A DNA stretch of 48,811 bases. It comes from a virus. Taxonomy: Duplodnaviria > Heunggongvirae > Uroviricota > Caudoviricetes. The stretch is from the IMG/VR virus record IMGVR_UViG_2706794677_000013; one strand, given 5' to 3'. Below the pieces are notes generated by a model. It saw only the letters and a program-made list of their open reading frames with translations, was not told the origin of the DNA and did no database searches. Made by a program: the position numbers and the translations under genes. This document shows, in pieces, positions 6,232 through 42,567 of this stretch. Positions within the stretch are counted from its first letter, which is position 1, and the number at the start of each line of letters is the position of its first letter.

Positions 6232-6672
6232 AATTATCTCCATTTTTACAAATGAACTTTGTTGATGCGGTGCCTGGTGCCTCCAGGTGACTGCAACCAG
6301 TTAACAATTACAGTCGGCTTTCCCACCCAAACCAATAAGGACTAACATGACTTTTAACTGTGCCACGTGCGCTTAGCCGCATTCACCGCATCACAAAATT
6401 CACTTTAAAAAGGGCGGACATCAGCCGAACTTCAAGAAAAAAACTGATGCCGCCAGGACTACACACAGCAATGTCGTTATTTACAACCGGAGGCGCACTC
6501 CCACCATTTAAATTTAACAGACAAGACCGACTCTTTATGGATATCGGAAATGCGCCTTCGTGTTGTGCCCGGTTTTATTTCACCACCTCCGGGCTTCGGT
6601 GGTCTCGGCTATACCCCTACAGCGAGAGCTTGTGTTAACATTTCAATACCCTTACAGTTGAGAGTTATTGAT

Positions 6673-7161
6673 ATGTTGGATGTATTTACTCCATTGTTGA
6701 AACTTTTTGCTAACGAGCCACTCGAAATACTTATGTATACGATTATCATTTTTGGTCTCACTCTCTGGCTGATACCGAAAGAGTTTACTGTCGCATTCAA
6801 TGCTTATACTGAAATACCTTGGCTCTTTCAGATTATCGTTTTTGCCTTTTCTTTCGTGGTCGCCATTTCCTTCTCAAGATTGCGAGCACATATTCAAAAG
6901 CATTATTCATTACTACCAGAGCAACGAGTATTGCTTCGTTTATCTGAGAAAGAAATCGCTGTATTTAAAGATTTCCTTAAAACAGGAAATCTTATTATCA
7001 CTTCTCCTTGCCGTAACCCGGTTATGAAAAAATTAGAACGGAAGGGCATCATTCAACATCAGAGTGATAGCGCAAACTGTTCTTATTATCTCGTCACCGA
7101 AAAATACTCCCATTTTATGAAGTTATTCTGGAACAGCAGGAGTAGACGTTTTAATCGTTAG
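6673..7161 (+). CDS. sieB: SieB-like superinfection exclusion protein, 162 aa (start at MLDVFTP), membrane protein
   Basis: Hydrophobic N-terminal half; sequence recollection of SieB; ATG verified by frame from the ORF track. Confidence 0.8.
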   Translation: MLDVFTPLLKLFANEPLEILMYTIIIFGLTLWLIPKEFTVAFNAYTEIPWLFQIIVFAFSFVVAISFSRLRAHIQKHYSLLPEQRVLLRLSEKEIAVFKDFLKTGNLIITSPCRNPVMKKLERKGIIQHQSDSANCSYYLVTEKYSHFMKLFWNSRSRRFNR

Positions 7162-7323
7162 CTTACTGTGTGCTTCTCCAACCATCGGCGCGCACCAGTT
7201 TCGGTTTTAAATGTTTTGCTTTTGGTATACGTCATGGCAGTGAACGTTCCATCCTGGTTGGGGAACACGCCGCACACCAGGGATTCGTTGTTGCCGAGGT
7301 CGATTTTTTGCATTTTGCGAATC

Positions 7324-7458
7324 TCACATCTTGTTGCTGTGTATAGCGACTTCTGCCTGCCAGAGATCCCAGTCGTTGCTGCGTAAAGCCTGCACAGCCT
7401 GGTTGTAAGTGATACCGCAACAATCCATCAAATACTGAACTACTTCGTAATGCACCAT
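7324..7458 (-). CDS. Small YdaF-like ORF (start at MVHYEV)
   Basis: Short minus-strand ORF in the region between sieB and racR; weak recollection only. Confidence 0.3.
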   Translation of the reverse strand: MVHYEVVQYLMDCCGITYNQAVQALRSNDWDLWQAEVAIHSNKM

Positions 7459-7748
7459 CTTATCTCTCCCCTTAACGCCGGGTGGCGGAACTGAAACCTG
7501 CTGCACTGCAAAATCTGAACCCTGCCGTCATGTTCATACGCCTCGGGCTGGCTACTTAACCCCTGACCACTGCCTGGTAACTCGAAGTATTGCCCTGCGT
7601 TCTGTGGGGCGGGGTGGGTTGGTAGGTATATAATGTACTTTGTGTTCATTGATGTAAAGTACTATAAGTACATTTTGTGTGTAAAAAAATGAGATGGGAT
7701 AAAGTGAAGCACAAACCCGGAGGGGGACGCTACCGGATTTATGCTGGT

Positions 7749-8186
7749 TTAAGAGGCTTTTTGTTTTTTCTTTCGTGCTAGCTCTTCGTAAATTGCATTG
7801 TACTTCTGTTTTTTCTCCTCAAGAGTTTTTAAAAGTTCATCTGTCTCACTGTCAGGGAGCTCGTCCAGAAGGTCAATGATGATTTTTTGTCTTGGATTTA
7901 ACTCCTGATAGAAACGTACCTGTCCACTTTCTTCTGTATCCTCTCCCAAAAGATAGGTTGGTGTTGTTCCAATGAGTGTTGCTAATTCCCTTAATTTCTC
8001 TCGGCGAGGAATTGTTTCGCCATTAAACCATTTGCTAACCGCTTTTGGTGTTAATTTCATTCGACGGGCAATTTCTGCCTGCCTTCCATGTTGTTCATAA
8101 CCAGCGTTTTCACAGGCTAGCGCAAGCCTACTGGCGAACTCTTTACGCGCTTTATCTTCATGAACCATAAGTTCAATGATATTCAC
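7749..8186 (-). CDS. racR: RacR-like prophage repressor, HTH (Xre-type) N-terminal domain
   Basis: HTH-like segment (QAEIARRMKLTPKAVSKWFNGE); divergent from the ydaS-ydaT operon. Confidence 0.7.
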   Translation of the reverse strand: MNIIELMVHEDKARKEFASRLALACENAGYEQHGRQAEIARRMKLTPKAVSKWFNGETIPRREKLRELATLIGTTPTYLLGEDTEESGQVRFYQELNPRQKIIIDLLDELPDSETDELLKTLEEKKQKYNAIYEELARKKKQKAS

Positions 8187-8247
8187 TCTTGAATGTACTG
8201 TCAGTTCTGTTATAGCATGTACTCAAAGTTCACATTGTGAGGGTGAT
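8187..8247. promoter_or_regulatory. Divergent promoter/operator region between racR (leftward) and ydaS (rightward)
   Basis: 61-bp AT-rich intergenic region between divergently oriented regulator genes; no operator sequences verified. Confidence 0.4.
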
Positions 8248-8502
8248 ATGAACCAGAAAACACTTGAAGATGTAATCAAAACTGTTCGCGTTTCTGTTGT
8301 GGCCGACGTTTGTGGTGTCAGCCAAAGAGCAATCTACAAATGGATGGATAACGGAAAATTGCCTCGCACAGAATATACCGGCGAAACAAATTACGCTGAA
8401 AAAATCGCTCATGCATCAAACGGATTATTTTCTGCTGATGTAATTTTAACTATTGGCAGAAATAAAACTACTACGAAAAAGCTGATGGGAGTTGATTCAT
8501 GA
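8248..8502 (+). CDS. ydaS: YdaS-like Cro-type HTH protein (start at MNQKTLED)
   Basis: Small HTH protein (VCGVSQRAIYKWMDNGKLP) first in the rightward operon; ATG at 8248 preceded by gtgaggg. Confidence 0.7.
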   Translation: MNQKTLEDVIKTVRVSVVADVCGVSQRAIYKWMDNGKLPRTEYTGETNYAEKIAHASNGLFSADVILTIGRNKTTTKKLMGVDS

Positions 8503-8921
8503 AAATCAAGCATGAGCACATCGAGTCAGTGTTGTTAGCCCTGGCAGCCGAAAAAGGGCAGGCATGGGTAGCCAATGCCATTACTGAAGAATATCTGCGC
8601 CAGGGGGGCGGCGAATTGCCCCTGGTACCAGGCAAGGACTGGAATAATCAGCAGAATATCTATCACCGTTGGTTGAAAGGTGAAACGAAAACGCAAAGAG
8701 AAAAAATTCAGAAGCTGATCCCAGCAATTCTGGCAATCCTTCCGCGCGAGCTGCGTCACCGACTCTGCATCTTCGATACCCTGGAACGCCGTGCATTACT
8801 GGCGGCGCAGGAAGCGTTAAGTACGGCAATTGATGCGCATGATGATGCAGTCCAAGCCGTTTACCGGAAAGCGCATTTCAGCGGCGGCGGGTCTTCCGAC
8901 GATTCTGTCATTGTTCATTAA
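8499..8921 (+). CDS. ydaT: YdaT-like protein, 140 aa
   Basis: ORF overlapping the ydaS stop by 4 nt; sequence recollection. Confidence 0.65.
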   Translation: MKIKHEHIESVLLALAAEKGQAWVANAITEEYLRQGGGELPLVPGKDWNNQQNIYHRWLKGETKTQREKIQKLIPAILAILPRELRHRLCIFDTLERRALLAAQEALSTAIDAHDDAVQAVYRKAHFSGGGSSDDSVIVH

Positions 8922-8933
8922 GCAAAAGTTTCC

Positions 8934-9791
8934 ATGCTGTTTGTGCTTATTCTAAGCCACCGGGCAGCATCATACGGGGCAATTATGGCCGCATTACCAT
9001 ACATGCAACTGTACATAGCTGATTACCTGGCTGACACCATGCATTTGTCAGCAGAGGAGCATGGTGCGTATTTGTTGCTGATGTTCAATTACTGGCAAAC
9101 AGGAAAGCCAATACCTAAAAACAGGCTGGCAAAAATTGCCCGTCTGACTAACGAGCGATGGGCTGATGTTGAACCATCCTTGCAGGAGTTTTTTTGCGAT
9201 AACGGCGAGGAATGGGTGCATCTTCGGATTGAGGAAGATCTGGCATCAGTCAGGGAAAAATTAACCAAAAAATCAGCCGCAGGAAAAGCATCTGTTCAGG
9301 CCAGAAGAAGCAGAAAGGAAGCAGATGTTCAAACAAAACAAGAGAGAAATTTAACAGGTGTTCAAACAGATGTTGAAGTGGTGTTTGAACATGATGTCAA
9401 CACAAAGGCAACTAATAAAGATACAGATAAAGATCTAAAAACAGATCCCCCCCTAAATCCCCCCCGGGGGAATCGAGGTGTCAAAAAGTTTGACCCTCTG
9501 GATATTGCTTTGCCGAACTGGATTTCTGTCTCGCTTTGGCGTGAGTGGGTTGAATTTCGCCAGGCATTGCGAAAACCGATTCGAACGGAGCAGGGCGCTA
9601 ACGGGGCGATACGGGAGCTGGAAAAATTCCGCCAGCAGGGTTTTTCACCTGAGCAGGTGATTCGACACAGCATCGCCAATGAATACCAGGGCTTGTTCGC
9701 GCCGAAAGGTGTTCGACCTGAGACGTTACTCCGACAGGTTAACACCGTCTCGTTACCGGATAGTGCGATCCCGCCAGGCTTCAGGGGGTAA
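8934..9791 (+). CDS. ydaU: YdaU-like phage replication protein (DUF1376-type), 285 aa
   Basis: Sequence recollection; followed 6 nt later by a DnaC-like ATPase gene (replication module arrangement). Confidence 0.7.
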   Translation: MLFVLILSHRAASYGAIMAALPYMQLYIADYLADTMHLSAEEHGAYLLLMFNYWQTGKPIPKNRLAKIARLTNERWADVEPSLQEFFCDNGEEWVHLRIEEDLASVREKLTKKSAAGKASVQARRSRKEADVQTKQERNLTGVQTDVEVVFEHDVNTKATNKDTDKDLKTDPPLNPPRGNRGVKKFDPLDIALPNWISVSLWREWVEFRQALRKPIRTEQGANGAIRELEKFRQQGFSPEQVIRHSIANEYQGLFAPKGVRPETLLRQVNTVSLPDSAIPPGFRG

Positions 9792-9797
9792 CTGACC

Positions 9798-10224
9798 ATG
9801 AAAAATATTGCGACAGGCGACGTTCTTGAACGTATCCGCAGACTGGCCCCGTCACATGTAACCGCGCCATTCAAGACGGTAGCGGAGTGGCGCGAGTGGC
9901 AACTTTCCGAAGGCCAGAAACGTTGTGAGGAGATCAACCGTCAGAATCGTCAGTTGCGGGTGGAAAAAATTCTGAATCGCTCTGGCATCCAGCCATTGCA
10001 CCGCAAATGCTCGTTTTCGAATTACCAGGTGCAGAACGAAGCGCAGCGATACGCGTTGAGTCAGGCGAAATCCATCGCTGATGAACTGATGACCGGGTGT
10101 ACAAATTTTGCGTTCAGCGGAAAACCTGGTACCGGGAAGAACCACTTAGCGGCAGCTATCGGGAATCGCCTGCTGAAAGACGGTCAGACAGTGATTGTGG
10201 TTACCGTGGCTGATGTTATGAGCG
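9798..10224 (+). CDS. ydaV: YdaV-like DnaC/IstB-family helicase loader, 5' part only (runs into N gap)
   Basis: Walker A motif GKPGTGKNHLAAAIG; ORF truncated by N run at 10225. Confidence 0.75.
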
Positions 10225-10474
10225 NNNNNNNNNNNNNNNNNNNNNNNNNNNNNNNNNNNNNNNNNNNNNNNNNNNNNNNNNNNNNNNNNNNNNNNNNNNN
10301 NNNNNNNNNNNNNNNNNNNNNNNNNNNNNNNNNNNNNNNNNNNNNNNNNNNNNNNNNNNNNNNNNNNNNNNNNNNNNNNNNNNNNNNNNNNNNNNNNNNN
10401 NNNNNNNNNNNNNNNNNNNNNNNNNNNNNNNNNNNNNNNNNNNNNNNNNNNNNNNNNNNNNNNNNNNNNNNNNN
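10225..10474. other. Run of 250 N
   Basis: Literal n characters. Confidence 1.
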
Positions 10475-10694: not shown

Positions 10695-11030
10695 TCTCCC
10701 CCTCGCCAAAAACGAGCGTCTAAAAAATTCGAGCCGGAGGCTATTGAGCTGCCCGATTGGTTGCCGGAAACACTCTGGCATGAGTGGGTCCGGTTCAGAC
10801 AGGCATTGCGAAAACCGATTCGAACGGAGCAGGGCGCTAACGGGGCGATACGGGAACTGGAAAAATTCCGTCAGCAGGGTTTTACACCTGAGCAGGTGAT
10901 TCGACACAGCATCGCCAATGAATACCAGGGCCTGTTCGCGCCGAAAGGTGTTCGGCCTGAGACGTTGCTCCGACAGGTTAACACCGTCTCGTTGCCGGAC
11001 AGTGCGATCCCGCCAGGCTTCAGGGGGTAA
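10695..11030 (+). pseudogene. Second, diverged copy of the YdaU-like C-terminal region (fragment; in-frame TGA immediately upstream at 10692..10694)
   Basis: Translation ...KKFEPEAIELPDWLPETLWHEWVRFRQALRKPIRTEQGANGAIRELEKFRQQGFTPEQVIRH... is near-identical to the C-terminus of the 8934..9791 protein. Confidence 0.5.
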
Positions 11031-11036
11031 CGGACC

Positions 11037-11325
11037 ATGAAAAATATTGCGACAGGCGGCGTTCTGGAACGCATCCGCCGACTGACCCCGCCACATGTAA
11101 CCGCCCCATTCAGAACGGTAGCGGAGTGGCGCGAGTGGCAACTTGCTGAAGGCCAGAAACGTAGCGAGGAGATCAACCGCCTGAATCGCCAGTTGCGGGT
11201 GGAAAAAATTCTGAATCGCTCAGGCATCCAGCCGTTGCACCGTAAATGCTCGTTTGCGAATTACCAGGTGCAGAACGACGGCCAGCGATACGCGTTAAGC
11301 CAGGCGAAATCCATCGCCGATGAAC
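11037..11325 (+). CDS. Second copy of YdaV-like DnaC-family gene, 5' part only (runs into N gap)
   Basis: MKNIATGGVLERIRRL... about 90 percent identical at protein level to the start of the 9798 gene; truncated by N run. Confidence 0.6.
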
Positions 11326-11575
11326 NNNNNNNNNNNNNNNNNNNNNNNNNNNNNNNNNNNNNNNNNNNNNNNNNNNNNNNNNNNNNNNNNNNNNNNNNNN
11401 NNNNNNNNNNNNNNNNNNNNNNNNNNNNNNNNNNNNNNNNNNNNNNNNNNNNNNNNNNNNNNNNNNNNNNNNNNNNNNNNNNNNNNNNNNNNNNNNNNNN
11501 NNNNNNNNNNNNNNNNNNNNNNNNNNNNNNNNNNNNNNNNNNNNNNNNNNNNNNNNNNNNNNNNNNNNNNNNNNN
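11326..11575. other. Run of 250 N
   Basis: Literal n characters. Confidence 1.
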
Positions 11576-11591
11576 AGTTTCAGGAGGATTT

Positions 11592-12014
11592 ATGGCGAAA
11601 CCTTTTACTCCCGAACAGCGGGAAGAACTGAAGACGCGAATTGTGGAACTCGTGCATCAGGACGGTCGGGTCACGATTCGGCAGTTGTCAGATGAAACAG
11701 GTATCAGTCGTGCGTCTGTCGGTCGCTTATGCATAGAACTGGTCGCAAGTGGTGATGTATATAATTCTGGCTACGGCTTATTCCCGTCTGAACAGGCTCG
11801 CAAGGACTGGCAAAGCGCCCGCAAAAAACTCTCGAGAGTAAAGGTGAGGAAACCGGTTGTTGTTGATCCGGACCTTATCTGGTCATTACCTGACGGAGAA
11901 ATACGCCGCTACGACAGGCGCCTGAATATAATCTGTCGCGAGTGCCGGAAGAGCGAAGCTATGCAGCGTGTACTGGCTTTCTATCAGGGTAATTTTCAGG
12001 AGGCGATACTGTGA
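11592..12014 (+). CDS. Hypothetical nin-region protein, 140 aa, C-terminal CRECRK motif (paralog A of 15721..16137)
   Basis: ATG at 11592 preceded by caggagg; the ORF track merges it with upstream sequence only because the N run happens to keep frame. Confidence 0.6.
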   Translation: MAKPFTPEQREELKTRIVELVHQDGRVTIRQLSDETGISRASVGRLCIELVASGDVYNSGYGLFPSEQARKDWQSARKKLSRVKVRKPVVVDPDLIWSLPDGEIRRYDRRLNIICRECRKSEAMQRVLAFYQGNFQEAIL

Positions 12015-12071
12015 ATGAAATTAGCTATCAGGCTTCAATTACCGCTGGCATTCGCATCAAAGGAGAGGAGC

Positions 12072-12428
12072 ATGGAAATAAAACCAGAAGATGAGTTAAG
12101 CAATATCGTTTTATTTCCGGTAAAAGAGGATGACCCTCGTAATCAGGTTAATTTTCTTTATGAGCCATCGGAAAGACCATATTGCCATCACGCCTCTGTA
12201 CGGGTTGACGAAAAAGAGCGTCAGGTCCGCTGTAAAATCTGCGGTGCGGTTGTGGAGCCGTTTGACTGGATGCTCTCTGTGGCAAAAAGAGAAACCAGAC
12301 TGGCAGATGATGTAAGGCTATTGCGCCAGGAGGAACAGGAAAGGCGGAGAAATATAGAAAAGCTGATACAGATTGAGCGTAACGCGAAAGCGCGGATACG
12401 CAGGGCGACAAAATCCAGAACTGAATAA
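12072..12428 (+). CDS. Hypothetical protein with CxxC-type Cys pairs and basic coiled-coil C-terminus (start at MEIKPEDE)
   Basis: ATG preceded by aaggagagg; Cys pairs CHH...CKIC. Confidence 0.5.
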   Translation: MEIKPEDELSNIVLFPVKEDDPRNQVNFLYEPSERPYCHHASVRVDEKERQVRCKICGAVVEPFDWMLSVAKRETRLADDVRLLRQEEQERRRNIEKLIQIERNAKARIRRATKSRTE

Positions 12429-12575
12429 TTAAATTTAGCACTGTTAAAAATTTAATCCTTAACCGGAGGGATTTCTGCACCCTCAAATCATCAGGAGACC
12501 ACCCGAAAGGGCGGGGAGCAGTCACACATCTGTTTCCGATAGCCCCGTTCTAATGCTACACTCTTTGATATTTTT

Positions 12576-13262
12576 ATGACCCCAATAAACATATTTATGA
12601 CAGTTGCTGATTTCAAACGGCCCAAATTGGAGCTCCCAAACGGGGCAAACAAACTACTACTGCACTCTTGCTGTGCTCCATGTTCCGGTGAGGTGATGGA
12701 GGCGCTTCAGGCCTCGGGAATCGACTACACCATCTTTTTCTACAACCCGAACATTCATCCTCAGAAAGAGTATTTAATTCGTAAGGATGAGAATATTCGC
12801 TTTGCTGAACAACACGGCGTGCCGTTTATTGATGCTGATTACGACACAGACAACTGGTTTGAACGAGCCAAAGGAATGGAATGGGAGCCCGAACGAGGGA
12901 TCCGTTGCACCATGTGTTTTGACATGCGTTTTGAGCGGACAGCGCTGTACGCCGCTGAAAATGGTTTCAGTGTGATCAGCAGTTCACTGGGCATTTCACG
13001 CTGGAAAAATATGCAGCAGGTTAACGACTGTGGGCGGCGAGCCGTCGCGCATTATCCGGGCATGGTGTACTGGGATTATAACTGGCGCAAGCAGGGCGGC
13101 TCGTCCCGTATGATTGAAATCAGCAAGCGCGAAAAATTCTATCAGCAGGAATATTGTGGCTGTGTGTATTCTCTGCGCGATACCAATCTACACCGCAAAT
13201 CTCAGGGACGCCCTCTTATCAAAATTGGTCAACTCCACTACGGTAAAGAAGAGAAGGAGTGA
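12576..13262 (+). CDS. queH: QueH-like protein (DUF208, epoxyqueuosine reductase family), 228 aa
   Basis: N-terminal [10 protein letters not shown] motif plus later CTMC and EYCGC motifs, which I recognise as the QueH/DUF208 signature. Confidence 0.6.
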
Positions 13263-13489
13263 TTTTATGGGGCACCTTTCTGATTGATTTCATATTGGCG
13301 AGGTAAGTAGAATGACTGCGGGTGCTTGAGGCTATCTGCTTCAGGCATGAACACCAAAAGGCAGATAGAGAAAAGCCCCAGTTAACATTACGCGTCCGGC
13401 AAGACGCTTAACATTAATCTGAGGCCAATTTCATGCTTTGCACATGTAGGTTAGCCTCTTACATGCCGAAAGGCAAGGAGAAGCAGGCT

Positions 13490-13645
13490 ATGAAGCAGCA
13501 AAAGGCGATGTTAATCGCCCTGATCGTCATCTGTTTAACCGTCATAGTGACGGCACTGGTAACGAGGAAAGACCTCTGTGAGGTACGAATCCGAACCGGC
13601 CAGACGGAGGTCGCTGTCTTCGTAGACTACGAATCCAGGAAGTAA
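13490..13645 (+). CDS. hok: Hok/Gef-family membrane toxin, 51 aa (HokD/RelF-like); the longer in-frame ORF from 13433 may be a mok-like leader
   Basis: MKQQKAMLIALIVICLTVIVTALVTRKDLCEVRIRTGQTEVAVF... is a textbook Hok-family sequence; structured leader with stem ctatctgc/gcagatag upstream. Confidence 0.85.
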   Translation: MKQQKAMLIALIVICLTVIVTALVTRKDLCEVRIRTGQTEVAVFVDYESRK

Positions 13646-13721
13646 GAGTGACCGGGCGGGGAGCTGATCCCATCCCCGCCCACCTCTGATGTGTCAGGCA
13701 TCCTCAACGCACCCGCACTTA

Positions 13722-13765
13722 ACCCGCCCATCGCTGTGATCTCTCAGCGTTTCGGCGGGTTTTTT
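13722..13765 (+). terminator. Hairpin plus T-run downstream of hok (intrinsic terminator / hok mRNA 3' fold)
   Basis: cccgcc...ggcggg stem followed by tttttt. Confidence 0.5.
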
Positions 13766-13894
13766 GTTGTTTATTTCCGGTGAATTTGATTCGCGCACCT
13801 TCGCAGATAGAATCGACTCACTTAAGTAGCGCGCAGGGAGAAGAGGGATGGACCCCGAACAGGGGAGAGCTATTTATCTGGAAGGATTCTGAAG

Positions 13895-14182
13895 ATGAAA
13901 ATCGAAGAATTGCGTGAAATTTTTAGTGAAAATGGCCTCTATGCTGTGCGCGTTGAGAATGGAGCGATTGTCAGCCATTGCCGCATTAGATGTTTGCAAT
14001 CTCAACAAAGGAAGAGCGGTGCTGTGTTATTTTATTTTTGTAATGGACTTCTGACGGACGGTTTTATTTTGCGTGAGGACGAATTTGTCACATCATTACG
14101 GGTTTTGAAAGAGATTGGTTTTAAGGCTGGTTTTCTGCTTTTGCTGAAGAATAAACTCATCTACAATCTTGAGCAGGATTGA
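13895..14182 (+). CDS. Hypothetical protein, 95 aa
   Basis: ORF with RBS-like ggaagga upstream; no recognisable family. Confidence 0.4.
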   Translation: MKIEELREIFSENGLYAVRVENGAIVSHCRIRCLQSQQRKSGAVLFYFCNGLLTDGFILREDEFVTSLRVLKEIGFKAGFLLLLKNKLIYNLEQD

Positions 14183-14220
14183 ACTCCTGCTGTGTAACAC
14201 CGTGCCACCGGAGAAAGCCG

Positions 14221-14469
14221 ATGGCACATATACAACTGGTCAAACAAACCTCTTCCGGATTACTTCTCCCGGCGACGCCGGAGAGTTGCGATTTTCTGCA
14301 TCAAATCAAAATAGGTGAGTGGATACACGCAGACTTTAAGCGTGTGTGTAACTACGCATTCCACAAGCGTTTTTTCAAACTCCTGCAACTGGGTTTCGAT
14401 TACTGGACTCCGGTCGGTGGGGCGATCACGCCTCGCGAACGAAAACTGGTGTCCGGTTTCGTTGATTAC
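14221..14469 (+). CDS. DUF1367-like nin-region protein, N-terminal part only (runs into N gap); near-identical to the start of 20088..20687
   Basis: MAHIQLVKQTSSGLLLPATPESCDFLHQIKIGEWIHADFKRV... duplicated at 20088. Confidence 0.55.
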
Positions 14470-14719
14470 NNNNNNNNNNNNNNNNNNNNNNNNNNNNNNN
14501 NNNNNNNNNNNNNNNNNNNNNNNNNNNNNNNNNNNNNNNNNNNNNNNNNNNNNNNNNNNNNNNNNNNNNNNNNNNNNNNNNNNNNNNNNNNNNNNNNNNN
14601 NNNNNNNNNNNNNNNNNNNNNNNNNNNNNNNNNNNNNNNNNNNNNNNNNNNNNNNNNNNNNNNNNNNNNNNNNNNNNNNNNNNNNNNNNNNNNNNNNNNN
14701 NNNNNNNNNNNNNNNNNNN
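14470..14719. other. Run of 250 N
   Basis: Literal n characters. Confidence 1.
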
Positions 14720-14921
14720 GGTGGTGCTGCACCAGATTGTTGATCGCCGGACAGCGTCGATGCGCAGCGTGGGGATGCTGACAAACCTGAACTATGAGGC
14801 CATGAAAACATTGCTCGGCGAGCGGATTATGGATCGCATGACCATGAACGGCGGGCGATGGGTGAATTTTAACTGGGAGAGCTGGCGTCCGAATGTCGTC
14901 CAGCCAGGAATTGAGAAGTAA
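14720..14921 (+). CDS. C-terminal fragment of an unidentified protein whose start lies in the N run (not the C-terminus of the DUF1367-like protein)
   Basis: Open frame from the gap edge to a stop at 14919..14921; differs from the C-terminus of the 20088 protein. Confidence 0.3.
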
Positions 14922-14943
14922 TTTTTACCGGGAGGAAATTTTT

Positions 14944-15705
14944 ATGGAGACTGTTTTTGACGCACTGAAAGCAATGGGAAAAGCCACATCCATAGAACTT
15001 GCTGCGCGACTTGATATCAGTCGTGAAGAAGTGCTGAACGAACTATGGGAACTGAAAAAAGCTGGTTTCGTTGATAAAAGCGCGTACACCTGGCGTGTGG
15101 CTGATAACAACGTTCAGCAGGAACAGCCAATGCAGGCAGAACTGCCGGAAGAAACCACCACGGCAACTGTAGTGAAAATCTCAGAGTGCGATTTAACCGC
15201 GACGATTGAACAACGCGGACCACAAACGGCGGATGAACTGGCTACGCTGTTCGGTACAACATCCCGCAAAGTTGCTTCAACGCTGGCAATGGCAATCAGC
15301 AAAGGACGCCTGATTCGCGTAAACCAGAACAGTAAATTTCGTTACTGCATGCCGGGCGATAATTTACCAGCAGAGCCGAAAGCTGCATCGGTAGCGGAAA
15401 CTGATGGTAAAGCCTTTCCTCAGCCAGCCGGTGTTGCGTTACCAGTACAGGAAGCGGCAACACAGGAAGATATTAAAACAGAAACTGTGGCGGACATTGT
15501 GCAGTCGCTGCCATCGTTTACTGAAACGCAAGCGGATGACCTAGTTTTACCATCGCTGCATATGGCAAACCGCGAACTGCGTCGGGCGAAAAATCATGTC
15601 CAGAAGTGGGAGCGAGTCTGCGCCGCGCTGCGGGAGCTGAACAAGCACCGGGATATTGTCCGACAGATTGTCGATTCCTCCAGTCGTATTGTGTCGGAAA
15701 AGTGA
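14944..15705 (+). CDS. Hypothetical protein with two winged-helix-like segments, 253 aa (start at METVFDAL)
   Basis: ATG at 14944 preceded by gggagg; two HTH-like stretches ([26 protein letters not shown] and [29 protein letters not shown]). Confidence 0.5.
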
Positions 15706-15720
15706 TTGCCGGAGGCGCTT

Positions 15721-16137
15721 ATGGCAAAAGTTTTTACACAGGAAGAGCGTGAAAAAATTAAGGAGCAGGTTGTTGAGTTGGTACGCCAGAGTGGGCGCGA
15801 GACGTTAAGGCAACTGGAGGCCAAGACAGGTGCGACAAGATATCTGATGAGCATTCTTGCCAGAGAGTTGGTTGCCAGTGGCGATGTATACAACTCTGGC
15901 TATGGGTTATTCCCGTCTGAACAGGCTCGTAAGGATTGGAAAAACGCCCGCAAAAAACTATCCAGGGCAAAGGTGAAAAAAACGGTTGTGGTTGATCCTG
16001 ACCTTATCTGGTCATTACCAGACGGAGAAATACGCCGCTATGACAGGCGTCAGAACATAATCTGTCGCGAGTGCCGGAAGAGTGAAGTTATGAAACGTGT
16101 ACTGGCATTTTATCAAGGAAATCTTCGGTATTTATAG
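15721..16137 (+). CDS. Hypothetical nin-region protein (paralog B of 11592..12014), 138 aa
   Basis: ATG at 15721 preceded by ggagg; C-terminal two thirds about 80 percent identical to paralog A, including the CRECRKSE motif. Confidence 0.6.
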   Translation: MAKVFTQEEREKIKEQVVELVRQSGRETLRQLEAKTGATRYLMSILARELVASGDVYNSGYGLFPSEQARKDWKNARKKLSRAKVKKTVVVDPDLIWSLPDGEIRRYDRRQNIICRECRKSEVMKRVLAFYQGNLRYL

Positions 16138-16275
16138 ACGTTACTAGATCAAAGAGCATTAGTTCATATGTAAATTGACATTTTTCTGGCACAGGGGAGA
16201 GCTAGCGTGGTTGTCCGCTTTGTGCCAATAGCGGACATTGCTGGCTCATGGTATGTTAGTTTAAGGAGGCAGGTT

Positions 16276-17298
16276 ATGCCCTGTATTTCGCTGTGGTATA
16301 ATAGTTGCGCAATTGATACAAGGGAGCGTTACATCGTGAAAATTGTTTTCGAGGTTAATGGAAAGAAAGTTCCACTAAAATCTTTAAAATACATAAGCAA
16401 AAAAGATCAACTCGAAGTAATGAAAAACTGGTTCTTTGAAAACTTTGAAGATCCGGCAAATGCTTGTCCGTATGAAAGTAGAGAAGGTGGCTATGCTTAC
16501 ATATATGGCGGGCCGTATGATGCGAGCGAAGAACTACAATCCATCTTCGGTCAATATGTTAAATCTGAGTATATTGAGGAATTAGTAGATGAATTACAAA
16601 CACAATGTTTTGACTGGTCTGGAAACTCAAATAATATAGATGATTGGTACGATGATGATATCTACGACGCTGTAACGTCTTCCGGTAATCCGTATTTAAA
16701 ATTCATTGATAATATCGATAAAATAAAAAAACTTGCAAAAGATAAAACTGAACAACAGCAAAAAAACCACTTGCTTAGTTTGCTCTACACGAATGTTATT
16801 ACAGCTTTGGAAACGCTTTATGTTGAGCTATTCATTAATTCTATAGAGAAAGATGATGTCTACATAGCCAATTGTATAGAAAAAGGTAAGACTGAATTTA
16901 AAGTAAGCAAAGATATTGCTGCGTTGCCTTTCAAGGGTGAACCCATCGAGAAAATTAGGGGAGAGCTAATCAGGTCAATCAAGGAACACTTGATCAGTGC
17001 AAGCTGGCATAGCACTAAAAAGGTAATCGACCGCTATGAAGCTACATTCGATATAAAAGTACAAAAAGACTGTCCGATAGAAGCTATTGAATTGGCAACC
17101 CTCAATCGAAATCACTTAGTGCATCGTGGTGGAAAGGATAAAGAAGGGAACCTCGTAGTGATTACAGACCAGGATCTTGAAACGCTGATTGAAAATGCAT
17201 CGAACCTGGCAATTATGCTCTACAACAGTTTAAATGTAGCAACGAATAAAACCACCATTTTGCAACCAGATGACAAACCGTTCATTCATGAATTTTAA
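16276..17298 (+). CDS. Unknown protein A of an AT-rich two-gene cassette, 340 aa; possible HEPN-like R-x4-H motif (RNHLVH) near the C-terminus
   Basis: Long ORF; ATG at 16276 preceded by a strong RBS (ttaaggagg); markedly AT-rich codon usage compared with flanking phage genes. Confidence 0.65.
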   Translation: MPCISLWYNSCAIDTRERYIVKIVFEVNGKKVPLKSLKYISKKDQLEVMKNWFFENFEDPANACPYESREGGYAYIYGGPYDASEELQSIFGQYVKSEYIEELVDELQTQCFDWSGNSNNIDDWYDDDIYDAVTSSGNPYLKFIDNIDKIKKLAKDKTEQQQKNHLLSLLYTNVITALETLYVELFINSIEKDDVYIANCIEKGKTEFKVSKDIAALPFKGEPIEKIRGELIRSIKEHLISASWHSTKKVIDRYEATFDIKVQKDCPIEAIELATLNRNHLVHRGGKDKEGNLVVITDQDLETLIENASNLAIMLYNSLNVATNKTTILQPDDKPFIHEF

Positions 17299-17313: not shown

Positions 17314-18315
17314 ATGGATATTCGCACACGAAAGACAAAATTTTTAGAGTCGTTAGATTCAACTGAAGTGATACGCAAAGCAGTAAGTCTCGCTATAGAT
17401 TGCATTATTGATAATCATAATAGTAATGAAGATACCCCCTTAGTTATTACCAGCTATGATGATCTCTGTAGAATCCAGGTGCTAAATTATGTACAGGAGT
17501 TTTGCGAAGCTGCATTCCCTGATATGGATGAATATTACTTTAGTCCTAACATACTTCGCATCAACGGCAAGACTAGTGAAGAAGCTTGTATTAACTTAAT
17601 TAAACTCTTAAGAAGTACAAAAGGCATGCTATTCTGGTCCGATGCCCCATCGTGGTTCGCTAGCCTCCCCGACGGATTATTCCATGTTGTTAACATTGAT
17701 CAAAAAATCGTTACTCGCGGCCTTAATAAGAAAAACTCTAAGCCGACAATAATCAATAAAGATTACAGTGTAGATACACTACTATCAGAGCTATTTTTGA
17801 ATGGCGCACACATGGAGCAACCCAACGTACACAACGTTTCTGAGGGAAACATGAAGTTCTATGATGAATGCCATGCTGGATTAATCAGACCAATACCCGC
17901 TCCAATAGGCGCGTCATACGATGAAGAGATCACAATTAATTCTCCAGATTGGCAAAAGCTCGCGTGTGTAGCTTTACGCCGCTATCAGTCGAAGGAATGT
18001 CATGACGGAATGCAATGGGATACAACCGATCATGGTTGGACTGATGTAATCGCGTATCCATTCGTCGAAGAAATACAATCAATGGATAATAGTGGTTATC
18101 GACAATGTTTAGTTGGGCTGGTCACAATAAACAATTCAAATGCAAATTCTCCGTACCTATCTACCGTTTGGATACATCCATTTTATCGCAGGAGAGGGTT
18201 ATTAAGTAAGTTATGGCCAAAATTACAAGAGTTATATGGAAGTAACTTCGAAATTGAGCGACCTAATGAAAATATGAAAGCATTTCTGAAAAGTGCGAAA
18301 CACGCAGATTACTAA
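17314..18315 (+). CDS. Unknown protein B of the AT-rich cassette, 333 aa; C-terminal GNAT-acetyltransferase-like motif (VWIHPFYRRRGLLSKLWPKLQELYG)
   Basis: ORF starts 15 nt after gene A stop (operon-like); AT-rich; motif resemblance by eye only. Confidence 0.65.
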   Translation: MDIRTRKTKFLESLDSTEVIRKAVSLAIDCIIDNHNSNEDTPLVITSYDDLCRIQVLNYVQEFCEAAFPDMDEYYFSPNILRINGKTSEEACINLIKLLRSTKGMLFWSDAPSWFASLPDGLFHVVNIDQKIVTRGLNKKNSKPTIINKDYSVDTLLSELFLNGAHMEQPNVHNVSEGNMKFYDECHAGLIRPIPAPIGASYDEEITINSPDWQKLACVALRRYQSKECHDGMQWDTTDHGWTDVIAYPFVEEIQSMDNSGYRQCLVGLVTINNSNANSPYLSTVWIHPFYRRRGLLSKLWPKLQELYGSNFEIERPNENMKAFLKSAKHADY

Positions 18316-18935: not shown

Positions 18936-19274
18936 CTATTTTTTGGTGCTATAGACTTTTTCGCCCGAAAAGTCTGGAGCGACCCAAAAGTTAATATTAA
19001 ACTGAGCATCATCGCTTAGTTCAACACGGTGCCAGTATTGTGGTGGGCTTGTTGCAAAAGCGCCAGCATTAATGACTACTTTTATCTCCGGTTCAGTAGC
19101 ATTCTCATCAGTAAAACCATAATATGTTACAGTGCCTTCCATTACGCACAACTGCCCAAAAACACCTGCTGCTGTATTATGATGTGTTAATAACGCTGAA
19201 GGTACGTTCTCTTTTGTGAAGAACGGAGTTGAGCGTTTGATTACCCAATCTTTAGGAATTCTCTTGTGTGTCAT
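18936..19274 (-). CDS. Small cupin/DUF1971-like protein (start at MTHKRIPKDW), convergent with the AT-rich cassette
   Basis: Minus-strand ORF; weak recollection of a DUF1971-type family (HHNTAAGVFGQL, PPQYWHRVE). Confidence 0.4.
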   Translation of the reverse strand: MTHKRIPKDWVIKRSTPFFTKENVPSALLTHHNTAAGVFGQLCVMEGTVTYYGFTDENATEPEIKVVINAGAFATSPPQYWHRVELSDDAQFNINFWVAPDFSGEKVYSTKK

Positions 19275-20087
19275 AACCACCTCCTCCAAAACATGCATTA
19301 AAAATGCATCTTTTGGAGGGTTATGTCAAGCTGTTATGAAACACATAATTGATATGTTGATTAGAGGAGAAGATAGAATAAATATGGTTGTTTTTCGTAT
19401 AACTATTTGTTTTACTTTTAGTTTATGCATTCTGTGTGTTAGGAATAAGTTATTAAAGTTTAATCAAAAAATCTCGATGTAGTCCACATAGATTACTGTT
19501 ACTGAACCTTATTGTGTGTATTAGTTGTGTTCTGAAATTTCAGCTTAATTATTTATGATGTATTTTTTAACGATAAATATTTTCCCAGGATACCTTTACT
19601 GTGTATATAAATAAATTATATACGCATAAATAATGTAAAGGCGTCCTTTTAGATATATCTTATCAAATGTTAATGACTTGAGTGGGAAATATGATTCCAG
19701 CAACTTATCATGTGGCTACTTTATAAAAATAATGCCCATATAAAACAACAAGCGAAAAGGATTACGGATAAAAAAGGAGCGAGATGTGCGAACTTGTTAT
19801 TTTCCATGTTTAACCACCTTAAATAATTGATGATGACGGGATGATTGCATCTGTAATGCTTTTATTGAAATGTTATGATAAAAAAGAACTTTTGCATAAC
19901 ATTAAAATGTAATTTATCTAATCGTTTTTAATAATAAGTGTCGTATTTCTATCCTTGTACCAGCTATTTGATATGTAGTGTTTGTTCATGCTATGTGGGG
20001 CTTTACACCATAGCCAGTTTATTTATACTTTATTCGTCAGCCTGAACAACTGGCATCTGCTGCGCTGCGCCATCGAGAGATTGAGAA

Positions 20088-20687
20088 ATGGCGCATATAC
20101 AACTGGTCAAACAAACCTCTTCTGGTTTACTTCTCCCGGCGACGCCGGAGAGTTGCGATTTTCTGCATCAAATCAAAATAGGTGAGTGGATACACGCAGA
20201 CTTTAAGCGTGTGCGTAACTACGCATTCCACAAGCGTTTTTTCAAACTCCTGCAACTGGGATTCGATTACTGGACTCCGGTCGGTGGGGCGATCACGCCT
20301 CGCGAACGAGAACTGCTGTCTGGTTTCGTTGATTACCTGTGCGAATCAGTTGGTCGGGAACACACGCCAGCCCTGAGTGATGCCGCAGAGCAATACCTTA
20401 ACACCGTTGCGACTCGTAGAACCCGGGATACGGCGTTGCTAAAGTCGTTTGAGGCTTTCCGCGAGTGGGTAACCATTCAGGCCGGATTTTACACCGAGCA
20501 TATTTATCCGGACGGTAGCCGTGGGCGTCGGGCAAAATCCATCGCTTTTGCGAATATGGACGAAGTCGAGTTTCAGCAGGTTTATAAATCTGTACTGAAT
20601 GTGCTGTGGAACTGGATTCTGTTCCGTAAATTCTCCTCTCAGGAGGAAGTTGAAAATGTGGCCGCACAACTACTGGAGTTTGCGTAA
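20088..20687 (+). CDS. DUF1367-like nin-region protein, 199 aa, complete copy
   Basis: Complete ORF directly upstream of the DUF1364-like and Q-like genes. Confidence 0.6.
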   Translation: MAHIQLVKQTSSGLLLPATPESCDFLHQIKIGEWIHADFKRVRNYAFHKRFFKLLQLGFDYWTPVGGAITPRERELLSGFVDYLCESVGREHTPALSDAAEQYLNTVATRRTRDTALLKSFEAFREWVTIQAGFYTEHIYPDGSRGRRAKSIAFANMDEVEFQQVYKSVLNVLWNWILFRKFSSQEEVENVAAQLLEFA

Positions 20688-20977
20688 TGGTGAATTTACG
20701 TAAAGCGGCTAAAGGCCAGATGTGCCAGATCAGAATCCCTGGCTACTGCAATCACAATCCCGAAACCTCTGTGCTGGCGCATTACAGGCTGGCGGGGACG
20801 TGCGGAACAGCGACAAAACCACATGATATGCAGGCGGCGATAGCCTGTAGCTCATGCCACGATCTAATCGACGGGCGGGTAAAAACCAGCGATTACACCA
20901 AAGAAGAATTGCGCCTGATGCATGCTGAAGGGGTTTTTCGCACACAAGAAATCTGGAGAAAGAAAGGTCATTTATGA
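20687..20977 (+). CDS. DUF1364-like (YbcO-like) Cys-rich nin-region protein, 96 aa
   Basis: Cys pairs CQIRIPGYC and CSSCHDLIDGR; overlapping start/stop with neighbours. Confidence 0.5.
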   Translation: MVNLRKAAKGQMCQIRIPGYCNHNPETSVLAHYRLAGTCGTATKPHDMQAAIACSSCHDLIDGRVKTSDYTKEELRLMHAEGVFRTQEIWRKKGHL

Positions 20978-21516
20978 TTTACCCAACGAATACAGGAAAA
21001 AGCGGAGAACACCTTCGCCTCACCACGCTGGAAAGTGTCTGGATTCAGGGAAAACTACGTATGTGGGGGCGCTGGTCGTATATTGGCGGTGGCAGGTCAG
21101 GGAATATGTTCAATCAGTTGTTGGCATCCAAAAAACTGACGAAAACAGCCATTAATGAAGCCCTGCGCAGAATGAAAAAAGCGGGAATAGAGAAAGCTGA
21201 GCTGGAAGCGTTTTTGCGAGAGATGATCAACGGCAAGCAAAAGAGCTGGCTGGCGCATTGTACTGATGCAGAGGCGTTATGTATTGATCGAGTCATAAGT
21301 GAGGTGCTGGCAGAGCATCCAGGATTGATTTGCATTCTCCGGCAACGCTATGAAGGGCGGGGGATGACTAAGCGCAAAATGGCTGAATTGCTAAATGATG
21401 CACACCCAGAGTGGTGTTTTAGCACATGCGAAAAACGGATTGCTAATTGGTTAGCTGTTGCTGAGTATGCCCTATATATTCCCATGCGTGAATCATTTGC
21501 TGAGAAAATGGCTTGA
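20974..21516 (+). CDS. Late-gene regulator in the Q position (antiterminator Q-like), 180 aa
   Basis: Last gene before a strong intrinsic terminator and the lysis region; C-terminus has a sigma region-4-like/HTH character (RQRYEGRGMTKRKMAELLN); assignment is mainly positional. Confidence 0.55.
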   Translation: MIYPTNTGKSGEHLRLTTLESVWIQGKLRMWGRWSYIGGGRSGNMFNQLLASKKLTKTAINEALRRMKKAGIEKAELEAFLREMINGKQKSWLAHCTDAEALCIDRVISEVLAEHPGLICILRQRYEGRGMTKRKMAELLNDAHPEWCFSTCEKRIANWLAVAEYALYIPMRESFAEKMA

Positions 21517-21624: not shown

Positions 21625-22560
21625 CGTCAGGAAAGCAGGGGAGAATGCTGCTAGTTGGGCAACTGGTCTTTCTGCTCCAAATTATAACAGAGACCAGTTA
21701 TAGTTTCGGTGCTGTGTTTTTTTTACAATATTGTGATAACACATTGCTGGCGGGAGTTTTGATATTTCTTGGCAGGGGCTGATGATGCGTTATCCTGATG
21801 TCGTCAACTCATATAAAATGAGATGAGAGATCATTGCAGGGTGGTTTGTAATTCGCTGTTTAGCGGGACAATATGTTGTCTGATACAAGACACCCGACGC
21901 CTCAGATTACTATAATAAAGACGAAGCATCCTTTGTATTGACCAACCGCCTGTTTAGGCGGTTCTTTTTGGGCTGGTTTATTGTATGCCAAATGATTATT
22001 AAAAAGGTTGTGTTAATAACAAGATCCGAAATAATATGCCTGCATATTTTTATCTTGCTTATATTCTGCATATTGTGCATAGCAGGCTCATCCCTGCAAT
22101 CAAAACTGTATGATGAGTATTTTTTGTTTTCCTTTTTTCCAGTCATCTGATGATGACCTGCTTCTTTTTAATCCGGATCGACATCAGTTTTTTAAGATAA
22201 TTCCTGCGAGTTATATGCATAAATGCCACAAACTCCGCATTTTATGTGGTTGGGAGTTGCCGGGCGCGCAGTGAGTTTGCTAAGAAAACTCCTGCATGGT
22301 GAATCCCCCTGTGCGGTGGGGTGATACCATTAACCTTTTCTGTCGCCGACAGGTATCACGAACATTTTGTTCACCGGGAGGCACCCGGCACCATGCACTT
22401 CAATAGATTCTCTCCACATTATGGATATTCTTTCAGAATATCCCACGCAGACTTTGTGTAAATGTTAACAAATGTGCGTTTTATTTGATCTGATTCGCTG
22501 TTTGAGCGTCCAAAACAACGGTATATATAATCCTTTACTATATGACATATGTGAGGAAAA

Positions 22561-22989
22561 ATGGGTTTTCGTAGCGCATCAATTCTTACGTTGATTATTA
22601 GTGGGATTATTATCGGGTGCACTGATGCTGTATCGACAAATTATCATGACCGTACATCATATTACTCCGATAAAGCAATAGAGACACAGTATGTGAGTTC
22701 ATCTGAACGTACTTCTGATGTTAGTGAGGATATCCGTCTGTATGCCCATCAAATCAAGAGCGCCATCGAAAAACAGTTCGGGGATGCGAGTAAGTATTCA
22801 GGAAAAGAGTGTACACTGAGAATGCATATGGCCCCGAATGGCCTTCTACTGGAGGTTAAAAGAGAAAGTGGAGACCTCGATTTATGTCGTGAAGCGATGA
22901 ATGCGATAAAGAATGCTGATATACCTGCCCCCCCTTCGCCGGAAGTATATAAAGTATTTCAAAATGGGGTGCTGGATTTTAAACCCTGA
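22561..22989 (+). CDS. Lipoprotein with TolA domain-III-like C-terminus, 142 aa
   Basis: Signal peptide with lipobox IIGC; C-terminal 85 aa (YAHQIKSAIEKQFGDASKYSGKECTLRMHMAPNGLLLEVK...PEVYKVFQNGVLDFKP) closely resembles the E. coli TolA C-terminal domain as I recall it. Confidence 0.7.
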   Translation: MGFRSASILTLIISGIIIGCTDAVSTNYHDRTSYYSDKAIETQYVSSSERTSDVSEDIRLYAHQIKSAIEKQFGDASKYSGKECTLRMHMAPNGLLLEVKRESGDLDLCREAMNAIKNADIPAPPSPEVYKVFQNGVLDFKP

Positions 22990-23139: not shown

Positions 23140-23535
23140 GTGGGATTAAAGAAAATCGTTATGTTGACTTTTTGGGTCGGTTTTGTTGCGGGATGCACAC
23201 CTTTACACCCTTCAGATTGCCACAAAACTACTGCTACAGGTAGTTGCAGTTCAGGACGCTGGGATGATCAGGATGAATGGGGGGCGCAAGCGCGGGGAAT
23301 CAGAGCTGCAATTAATGCCAAACTTGATGAGCCGCATAACTGGAAAGGGAAAAAATGCAGGTTGCATATGGAATTCTCTCAGGATGGCACGGCGTTAAAA
23401 ATATCTACCAGTAACGGTGATAAAGCCTATTGCGAAGCGATAAAGTCCGCAGCTCATAAAGCCAAATTTCCGGCCTTCAACAATCCGGAAGTCTACAGAG
23501 ATTTTCAGAAATCTGGCTTTGACATGCGAGGTTAG
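23140..23535 (+). CDS. Second lipoprotein, diverged TolA domain-III-like paralog, 131 aa
   Basis: Lipobox VAGC; shares the C..L.M....G.LL / C.EA...A....P.....PEVY..FQ pattern with the preceding gene. Confidence 0.6.
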   Translation: MGLKKIVMLTFWVGFVAGCTPLHPSDCHKTTATGSCSSGRWDDQDEWGAQARGIRAAINAKLDEPHNWKGKKCRLHMEFSQDGTALKISTSNGDKAYCEAIKSAAHKAKFPAFNNPEVYRDFQKSGFDMRG

Positions 23536-24932: not shown

Positions 24933-25199
24933 NNNNNNNNNNNNNNNNNNNNNNNNNNNNNNNNNNNNNNNNNNNNNNNNNNNNNNNNNNNNNNNNNNNN
25001 NNNNNNNNNNNNNNNNNNNNNNNNNNNNNNNNNNNNNNNNNNNNNNNNNNNNNNNNNNNNNNNNNNNNNNNNNNNNNNNNNNNNNNNNNNNNNNNNNNNN
25101 NNNNNNNNNNNNNNNNNNNNNNNNNNNNNNNNNNNNNNNNNNNNNNNNNNNNNNNNNNNNNNNNNNNNNNNNNNNNNNNNNNNNNNNNNNNNNNNNNNN
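24933..25199. other. Run of 267 N covering the Rz 3' end and the trkG 5' end
   Basis: Literal n characters. Confidence 1.
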
Positions 25200-42300: not shown

Positions 42301-42567
42301 GTTTTTGGTGAGGCTGGACCGGAAGCCATTATGCCATTAACACGAACTTCCGATGGTTCTCTTGGTGTCAGAGCTATTAATAGTAAAAGTGGTAATGGAG
42401 GCGGAGATATTACCTATGCCCCTGTATACCAAATCACTATTCAAAATGACGGCCAGAATGGAGAGATTGGCCCTCAGGCAATAAAAGCACTTATGGGGAT
42501 GGTTGATCAGCGGGTGCAGGGCAATCTGTTAAATATGCGACGTGATGGGGGAATGTTAAGTGGCTAA
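39334..42567 (+). CDS. Tail tape measure protein, 1077 aa
   Basis: Very long, coiled-coil-rich N-terminal half, Gly-rich C-terminal part; position. Confidence 0.85.

Follow-up and report, generated by a model that had tools for sequence, protein, structure and literature searches.

The stretch of DNA analysed here—IMG/VR virus record IMGVR_UViG_2706794677_000013, 48,811 nucleotides from a member of the Caudoviricetes, hereafter the window—is a lambdoid prophage that carries among its early genes a gene, queH, for a protein of the epoxyqueuosine reductase family QueH. As an earlier reading of the window, made from its sequence alone, had proposed, the gene sits in the nin region: it follows the replication genes and a DUF977 gene and precedes sok/hok, DUF1367, YbcO and a Q-like antiterminator. 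We describe the gene and its product, document its distribution and conservation among the prophages of Escherichia coli, and weigh what such an enzyme may do for phage or host.

An uninterrupted frame of 228 codons, counted from its upstream ATG, occupies positions 12576–13262 of the plus strand in the list of open reading frames (ORFs) of the window. These bounds had been assigned to the gene and the frame itself stands, but its start has probably to be moved. Because the ATG at 12597 (Met8 in the 228-residue numbering used below) is kept in all alleles examined, because chromosomal QueH homologues begin at the equivalent Met in our alignment and because RefSeq calls a product of 221 aa (WP_012421537.1, named ‘epoxyqueuosine reductase QueH’), the real start of queH is likely to be 12597, with 12576 an in-frame upstream ATG. 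The upstream codon is ATT in strain 200177.

The sequence-only reading had placed the protein in the QueH (DUF208) family on the strength of an HSCCAPC motif and later Cys motifs, and profile, residues and fold all bore this out. The motifs are read directly from the sequence, the later ones being RCTMC and CGC. The protein matched Pfam PF02677 (QueH) at 220.6 bits (E 1.9e-65) against a curated cut-off of 23.5 bits, its residues 27–201 covering profile positions 1–174 of 175; among Protein Data Bank (PDB) sequences, the QueH of Thermotoga maritima (7lc5) was matched with E 5e-22. Residues were compared in an alignment of the window protein with 36 diverse homologues (35–86% identity), taken partly from the 318 matches at E ≤ 1e-30 among 1.84 billion representatives and partly from a word-indexed search, the T. 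maritima enzyme bringing the total to 38 sequences. Columns C32, C33, C36, N59, E65, R69, E106, R110, C111, C114, R118, K144, Q191, C194, G195, C196 and S199 were invariant in the homologues, and the window protein keeps all 15–17 invariant columns of this diverse alignment.

Six of these cysteines (C32, C33, C111, C114, C194 and C196) align with cysteines of T. maritima QueH and are invariant in 38/38 sequences, Cys32 and Cys33 corresponding to Cys9 and Cys10 of the 7lc5 protein. Li and colleagues are said to have found in 2021 that the T. maritima cysteines, arranged as CC, CxxC and CxC pairs, build a [4Fe-4S]-plus-iron site; the six cysteines of the window protein are presumably metal ligands as well. 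Asp13 of the T. maritima enzyme, mutated to Asn in PDB entry 9dco (D13N), aligns with Cys36, and Cys stands there in 37/37 non-Thermotoga sequences, the window protein included. Since Cys is found in every other sequence sampled, Cys is, as far as these sequences go, the normal and majority state of the family at this position and T. maritima the exception.

An AlphaFold2 model of the window protein (mean predicted local distance difference test score 93, predicted template-modelling score 0.89) was compared with the PDB by Foldseek, which ranked 9d86, 7lc5 and 7lc7 highest (E values from 5e-15 to 2e-14), with a target-normalised TM score of 0.92 and a root-mean-square deviation of 1.2–1.3 Å. 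The next-best folds, the sulfurtransferases TtuA and LarE, were nine orders of magnitude weaker (E 1e-5). Compared with T. maritima QueH (7LC5, 7LC7, 9DEU), the window protein thus has the same six cysteines, a full-length profile match and the same predicted fold at 30–33% identity. At its C terminus the window protein has a basic tail of some 25 residues, as do other proteobacterial QueH proteins, and there is no extra domain. That the window protein is QueH is fully supported by profile, residues and fold, and we infer from its sequence that it would be a catalytically competent, cobalamin-independent iron-sulfur epoxyqueuosine reductase (EC 1.17.99.6).

Two annotation resources were silent on this point. 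No NCBIfam model matches the window protein, although the Prokaryotic Genome Annotation Pipeline (PGAP) names it QueH, and this null result is uninformative. The sole match in PHROGs, phrog_3217 (188 positions, ‘unknown function’), covers residues 41–228 and so leaves CCAPC outside the profile; its label is an annotation gap and does not count against QueH. Phage-oriented annotation may miss QueH because the phrog_3217 profile starts at residue 41, without CCAPC. Gene calling probably took the internal Met41, ahead of which stands GGTGAGGTG, as the start of the phrog_3217 members.

Coordinates of the features of the locus are collected in Table 1.

Table 1: Features in and around queH, in window coordinates; residues are numbered by the 228-residue frame.
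Feature	Position	Strand	Basis and remarks
Recombinant segment with queH	10773–14469	+	ydaU' 3′ end, ydaV-like, DUF977, Zn-ribbon ORF, queH, sok/hok, orf95, DUF1367 5′ fragment
GC-rich hairpin CCACCC-GAAA-GGGCGG	12499–12516	+	Just 5′ of the conserved cassette; no terminator called
Conserved 5′ leader of the queH cassette, putative promoter	12526–12596	+	Megablast boundary and upstream alignments; promoter role inferred
queH coding sequence, 221 aa and stop	12597–13262	+	ORF, Pfam QueH, RefSeq start and name, homologue N-termini at Met8
HSCCAPC motif	12663–12683	+	Residues 30–36; His30, Cys32, Cys33, Cys36; read from the sequence
RCTMC motif, second cysteine pair of the presumed metal site	12903–12917	+	Residues 110–114; Arg110, Cys111, Cys114 invariant
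CGC motif, third cysteine pair	13155–13163	+	Residues 194–196; Cys194, Gly195, Cys196 invariant
sok/hok regulatory RNA, type I toxin-antitoxin module	13320–13495	+	Rfam RF01794 (sok), 117 bits, E 4e-26
mok/hok frame, HokD-like toxin	13433–13645	+	ORF; hokD annotated downstream in related prophages

Of 5,426 complete E. coli genomes, 995 (18%) have the queH coding sequence, 985 of them at a coverage of at least 80%. All but three of its 1,017 places in these genomes are chromosomal (1,014/1,017), with a median of one copy per genome; the copies are mostly 95–99% identical and RefSeq gives the name QueH to all of them. Carriers include O157:H7, O104:H4, ST131, avian pathogenic E. coli (APEC) and E. 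coli B. The gene for the enzyme that catalyses the same step by other means, queG, is present in 5,426 of the 5,426 genomes, and hence in every carrier of queH.

Every queH context examined was a lambdoid, Rac-like or Qin-like prophage, and the slot was constant, lying 3′ of the replication genes and DUF977 and 5′ of hokD and the nin genes (FDAARGOS_944, 042, 200177, O157 Z892, E. coli B and the phage HannyBb). Intact copies are held by the Rac-like elements of 042 and 200177 and by the Qin-like element of E. coli B, which is degraded (IS3 insertion, truncated genes); a lambdoid element with queH at ybhA/pgl also carries ipaH. In the O157:H7 Z892 prophage, a Dcm and NgoMIV-family restriction-modification pair takes the place of hok/sok after queH (7872–9882 of its locus), and the gene is likewise without hok in strain 200177; the position 3′ of queH is a cargo hot spot.

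Among 50,697 GenBank phage records, the sole isolated phage with queH was Escherichia phage HannyBb (96.5% aa identity), where the gene is annotated ‘hypothetical protein’ and which was the one full-length carrier in a megablast comparison; a tblastn search of the phage records added just faecal contigs that lack annotation and ‘giant phage’ records of doubtful standing. IMG/VR holds some 211–215 viral contigs with a QueH relative, the best 80 of which are all of the coli type. When the scan was seeded with divergent QueH proteins, the coli-type gene again filled the best 80, and within the sensitivity of that scan no other phage-borne QueH lineage was seen. Outside E. coli, with one genome surveyed per species, the 99% allele occurred solely in E. 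albertii, again with lambdoid neighbours.

Across these prophages queH is under strong purifying selection—a pattern that suits a working enzyme rather than decaying cargo—even in clearly defective prophages. When seven alleles from E. coli and phage were compared in pairs, the ratio of non-synonymous to synonymous divergence (dN/dS) was 0.02–0.08, at synonymous divergence (dS) of up to 0.45. Of the polymorphic codons in 30 distinct 666-nt alleles taken from viral contigs, 48 were synonymous-only and 14 amino-acid-changing, with none of the 14 at an invariant residue, and the 221-aa frame was intact in 147 of 150 queH loci on viral contigs.

The closest non-phage relatives, at 89–92% aa identity, belong to Scandinavium, Kluyvera and Enterobacter and have no lambdoid neighbours. 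The Enterobacter and Scandinavium copies are surrounded by metabolic genes, the Providencia gene adjoins tmcA, purC, bamC and dapA, and copies 76–87% identical occur across the Proteobacteria, also without lambdoid neighbours. Set against chromosomal Enterobacterales QueH (80–92% identity), the window gene differs in being prophage-borne rather than placed in a housekeeping context. The simplest history, judging by these identities and neighbourhoods, would be that a lambdoid phage captured a chromosomal queH of the Enterobacteriaceae and that the gene then spread in the Escherichia prophage pool. Even in Sphingomonas, Rhizobium, Pseudomonas and Stenotrophomonas, across the Alpha-, Beta- and Gammaproteobacteria, copies keep 76–80% identity to the prophage protein, which marks this QueH clade as very slow-evolving; homologue records labelled Bacillus subtilis and Kingella and those from Acidaminococcus metagenome-assembled genomes are probably contamination.

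Within the window, the prophage opens with an integrase (1–1236, minus strand), RecT, RecE and sieB, followed by a cI-like repressor (7749–8186, minus strand), a cro-like gene and ydaT, then by DUF1376/YdaU and IstB/DnaC-like YdaV replication genes and DUF977. A Zn-ribbon ORF (12015–12428) precedes queH, and the sok/hok module comes after it, about 240 bp downstream. The downstream nin-type genes DUF1627, DUF1367 and YbcO lead to the DUF1133/Q-like antiterminator (20974–21516), beyond which lie TolA-like ORFs, lysis genes, a trkG-like gene, and the terminase, head and tail genes. ARAGORN detected no tRNA gene in the window; related prophages carry tRNAs for Ile, Arg, Thr and Gly, and as these are not substrates for queuosine (Q) modification, we see no link between phage tRNAs and QueH.

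The queH-bearing stretch (roughly 10.5–14.5 kb) is 98.5–99.9% identical to the FDAARGOS_944 prophage, whereas its flanks are only 88–92% identical. It is bounded by direct repeats (9534–10086 with 10773–11325, 92%; 14221–14469 with 20088–20336, 97%), and N-masked runs at 10225–10474 and 14470–14719 fall at the segment junctions and make the joints unreadable. From this arrangement, the stretch looks like a second ‘replication-to-nin’ module gained by recombination between related prophages. A third, diverged pair of direct repeats lies in the early-right region (11740–11997 with 15869–16126, 87%), where the ydaV-like genes, the DUF977 genes and the DUF1367 5′ ends are duplicated, two each. This repeat layout suggests two tandem modules, the first of which (about 10.5–14.5 kb) carries queH-hok; they could have arisen by unequal recombination between prophages, or could be an assembly chimera. 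The FDAARGOS_944 prophage, which has the nearest relative of the queH module, also carries ipaH, encoding a type III secretion system effector E3 ligase (14761–16587 of its locus), and because of this the strain appears Shigella-like or enteroinvasive E. coli-like, though labelled E. coli.

Similarity between prophages begins at about 12526 (query position 127 in a megablast comparison with other E. coli) and takes in the leader of queH. Within it, TGcTACACT (12554–12562), an extended −10-like element 35–43 nt before the ATG, was nearly invariant in alignments of 7 and 19 distinct upstream variants. The hairpin that lies just upstream is not a canonical terminator, because it is without a T-run, and other prophages have a different hairpin at its position. 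Rfam searches upstream of queH found no preQ1 or other riboswitch, either at the gathering threshold or at E ≤ 1; sok alone was found. The gene has the orientation of the early-right operon, and it may be expressed in lysogens from a weak promoter of its own together with early-right read-through. Its constraint in cryptic prophages suggests selection in the lysogen, and hence some expression from the repressed prophage.

E. coli is unable to make corrinoids de novo, and tgt and queA are among its core genes. Following the pathway given in PMC5372724, host Tgt and QueA would put epoxyqueuosine (oQ) at position 34 of tRNA-Asp, -Asn, -His and -Tyr. QueG is cobalamin-dependent (PMC4646009, PMC5175355), and according to Frey 1988, as cited in PMC4646009, E. 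coli needs a cobamide to reduce oQ. QueH, unrelated to QueG in sequence and fold, is introduced in PMC5615194 and PMC5372724, citing Zallot 2017, as its cobalamin-independent, non-orthologous replacement. Prophage QueH is predicted to catalyse the same reaction as QueG on the same four tRNAs with no cobalamin requirement, and it would thus reduce the oQ34 epoxide on host tRNA to Q. Because QueG needs cobalamin and E. coli cannot make cobalamin de novo, such an enzyme would uncouple the completion of Q from corrinoid supply, a redundancy with QueG through a different cofactor.

Prophage QueH accompanies QueG and does not take its place, an accessory gene (18% of E. coli genomes) beside a core one (100%). 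Staphylococcus aureus keeps both QueG and QueH, with differing expression profiles that have been ascribed to cofactor availability (PMC13443448), and in phage-infected Shewanella both queG expression and the Q/oQ ratio rise (preprint 10.64898/2026.03.05.709803); the oQ-to-Q step is therefore physiologically variable. The reading that we favour, and consider probable, is that a captured housekeeping queH is prophage cargo that gives the host a cobalamin (B12)-independent reduction of oQ to Q. The gene now circulates as accessory cargo, usually as a queH-sok/hok cassette, in one nin-region slot of lambdoid, Rac-like and Qin-like Escherichia prophages. Both roles floated by the sequence-only reading can be judged against the same data: action on host queuosine tRNA modification is supported by the universal presence of queG and by purifying selection, while a 7-deazaguanine step in DNA is not supported, as set out below. 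Its remark that what the gene does in a phage is not obvious is still fair, the enzymatic role being clear and the selective benefit conjectural.

Several observations weigh against the favoured reading. A consensus scan called neither a promoter nor a terminator for queH and left TGcTACACT uncalled, and no recognisable Shine-Dalgarno sequence precedes the gene. An E. coli metE mutant is reported to grow no differently on cobamides once queG is deleted (PMC11841063), and no fitness cost of oQ relative to Q was found in the literature surveyed. The window protein, like the 36 other non-Thermotoga sequences, has Cys36 where the structurally studied T. maritima enzyme has Asp13. Tight linkage to hok/sok could keep queH irrespective of any benefit, and a clean deletion of 1,361 bp, with no known consequence, has removed the gene from BL21(DE3). 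The last two points would also suit a passenger—captured by chance, with no selected function, and persisting through the hok/sok addiction module and the recombining nin region—since in 67 of 84 distinct contexts on viral contigs hok lies about 238 bp 3′ of queH and the cassette moves between prophages through recombination. Such a passenger is, however, hard to square with dN/dS values this low, with 48 synonymous-only against 14 amino-acid-changing codons, with 147 intact frames among 150 loci and with the occurrence of queH without hok in O157:H7 Z892 and 200177, and we regard it as very unlikely. In BL21(DE3) (NC_012971.2, about 1591.2–1591.5 kb), compared with the E. coli B derivative B-ZidR (6613–7973 of its locus), the flanks of the deletion are 100% identical, and along with queH a methyltransferase fragment and the DUF977 3′ end are gone; laboratory strains of the B lineage may therefore differ in finishing Q without B12.

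The same enzyme might instead serve the phage, as a delayed-early gene of the PR operon that is expressed on induction only and raises Q/oQ for the decoding of NAU and NAC codons in late genes, the lysogen gaining nothing. Its orientation with the early-right operon, its place between the replication genes and antiterminator Q with no terminator called, its carriage by a viable isolated phage (HannyBb) and the climb of the Q/oQ ratio in infected Shewanella (preprint 10.64898/2026.03.05.709803) are all in keeping with this, and a benefit to the phage is compatible with one to the host. Yet queH is intact and constrained in defective prophages, such as the Qin-like element of E. coli B, that are unable to finish a lytic cycle; this points to the lysogen and leaves a benefit confined to the phage unlikely. 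Extremely improbable, in our view, is a part in phage genome modification, through DNA or a 7-deazaguanine precursor. Some phages do encode enzymes of the Q pathway for 7-deazaguanines in DNA (PMC6884629), but the survey of these phages reports no QueA, QueG or QueH, and epoxyqueuosine is not among the DNA modifications it lists (dG+ and related bases). Pfam scans of about 47 window ORFs, which left out the two longest tail ORFs (39334–42567 and 44950–48363), found no transglycosylase of the DpdA/TGT type, which such systems require, and no FolE, QueD, QueE or QueC, which they usually have as well, and the window protein is 80–92% identical to housekeeping tRNA enzymes. Neofunctionalisation of the QueH fold, for another substrate or for interference with host defence or a tRNA-targeting toxin, draws on the defence-type cargo that the slot holds elsewhere (the Dcm and NgoMIV restriction-modification pair of O157:H7 Z892). 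It is highly improbable, given that PADLOC finds no defence system for QueH or its neighbours, that conserved positions have not diverged from the housekeeping orthologues, and that there is no added domain, the basic C-terminal tail being shared with chromosomal homologues.

A B12-independent prophage reductase acting on host tRNA would differ from other borrowings by phages. The sets of DpdA with FolE, QueD, QueE and QueC that phages such as 9g and CAjan carry are also phage-borne and also taken from the queuosine pathway, but they comprise the early preQ0 branch and a DNA transglycosylase and act on DNA, whereas prophage queH supplies the final, tRNA-specific step, with neither DpdA nor preQ0 genes alongside. 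The gene resembles lambdoid ‘morons’ and nin cargo (hok/sok, restriction-modification systems, tRNA genes upstream of lysis genes) in being variable cargo at a fixed slot between the replication genes and antiterminator Q, present or absent among related prophages (absent from the BL21(DE3) slot) and kept in cryptic ones. Unlike these, it has neither a clear promoter-terminator pair of its own nor a deviant base composition, and it encodes a tRNA-modification enzyme rather than a defence, virulence or toxin gene.

The QueH family, its chemistry and the RefSeq name of exactly this protein are already known. Literature searches linking QueH or epoxyqueuosine reductase to prophages returned nothing relevant, and QueH as widespread, constrained E. 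coli prophage cargo, of housekeeping origin and redundant with QueG, appears to be undescribed in the literature searched. More tentatively, this may be the first enzyme of the tRNA-specific queuosine branch to be recognised in a virus, a lysogenic conversion of the host tRNA epitranscriptome through which about one in five E. coli strains could complete Q34 without B12. If its product is active, the gene would be a clean case of a phage-captured housekeeping tRNA-modification gene under strong constraint, and it would correct the impression left by the 2019 survey (Hutinet 2019, PMC6884629) that tRNA-specific Q genes are missing from viruses.

On this more tentative reading, O157:H7, O104:H4, ST131, APEC and E. 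coli B would finish Q34 without B12, while K-12 and BL21(DE3), when short of corrinoids, would go no further than oQ. With an active prophage enzyme, the Q or oQ status of E. coli would be set by strain and prophages besides B12 supply, and comparisons of tRNA modification among K-12, B, BL21 and clinical strains may mix different Q states. An active prophage QueH would also bear on how E. coli of the gut and pathogenic strains deal with competition for corrinoids. On the more tentative reading, the oQ-to-Q step would become a target of phage-host interplay, consistent with the rise of Q/oQ in Shewanella.

Elsewhere in the window, several genes stand out as observations in their own right. An ORF at 26698–27486 has a ParB_N domain, with a PADLOC MTase_II-like match over its N-terminal part, and that at 27461–28411 matches Pfam TAGT (TET-associated glycosyltransferase, E 4e-34). 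The pair lies just 5′ of the gene for the small terminase subunit, where Rac has ynaK/ydaY, and may form a module for DNA modification; a TET/JBP gene was not seen. Between the lysis and packaging genes, as with trkG in Rac, there is a TrkH/TrkG-family potassium transporter gene (25334–26560), the 5′ side of which is cut by an N-masked run (24933–25199).

In the second nin module, a 363-aa ORF (16207–17298) and a 333-aa ORF (17314–18315) gave sub-threshold matches to a HEPN/RES N-terminal region and to GNAT, respectively, and a DUF1971 gene (18936–19298, minus strand) has a counterpart after queH in strain 200177. These three had no PADLOC match and are possible defence or accessory cargo. The small RNA STnc100 (22264–22450; Rfam, 86.6 bits) lies between the Q-like antiterminator and the lysis genes, beside two ORFs with TolA C-terminal domains (22561–22989 and 23140–23535).

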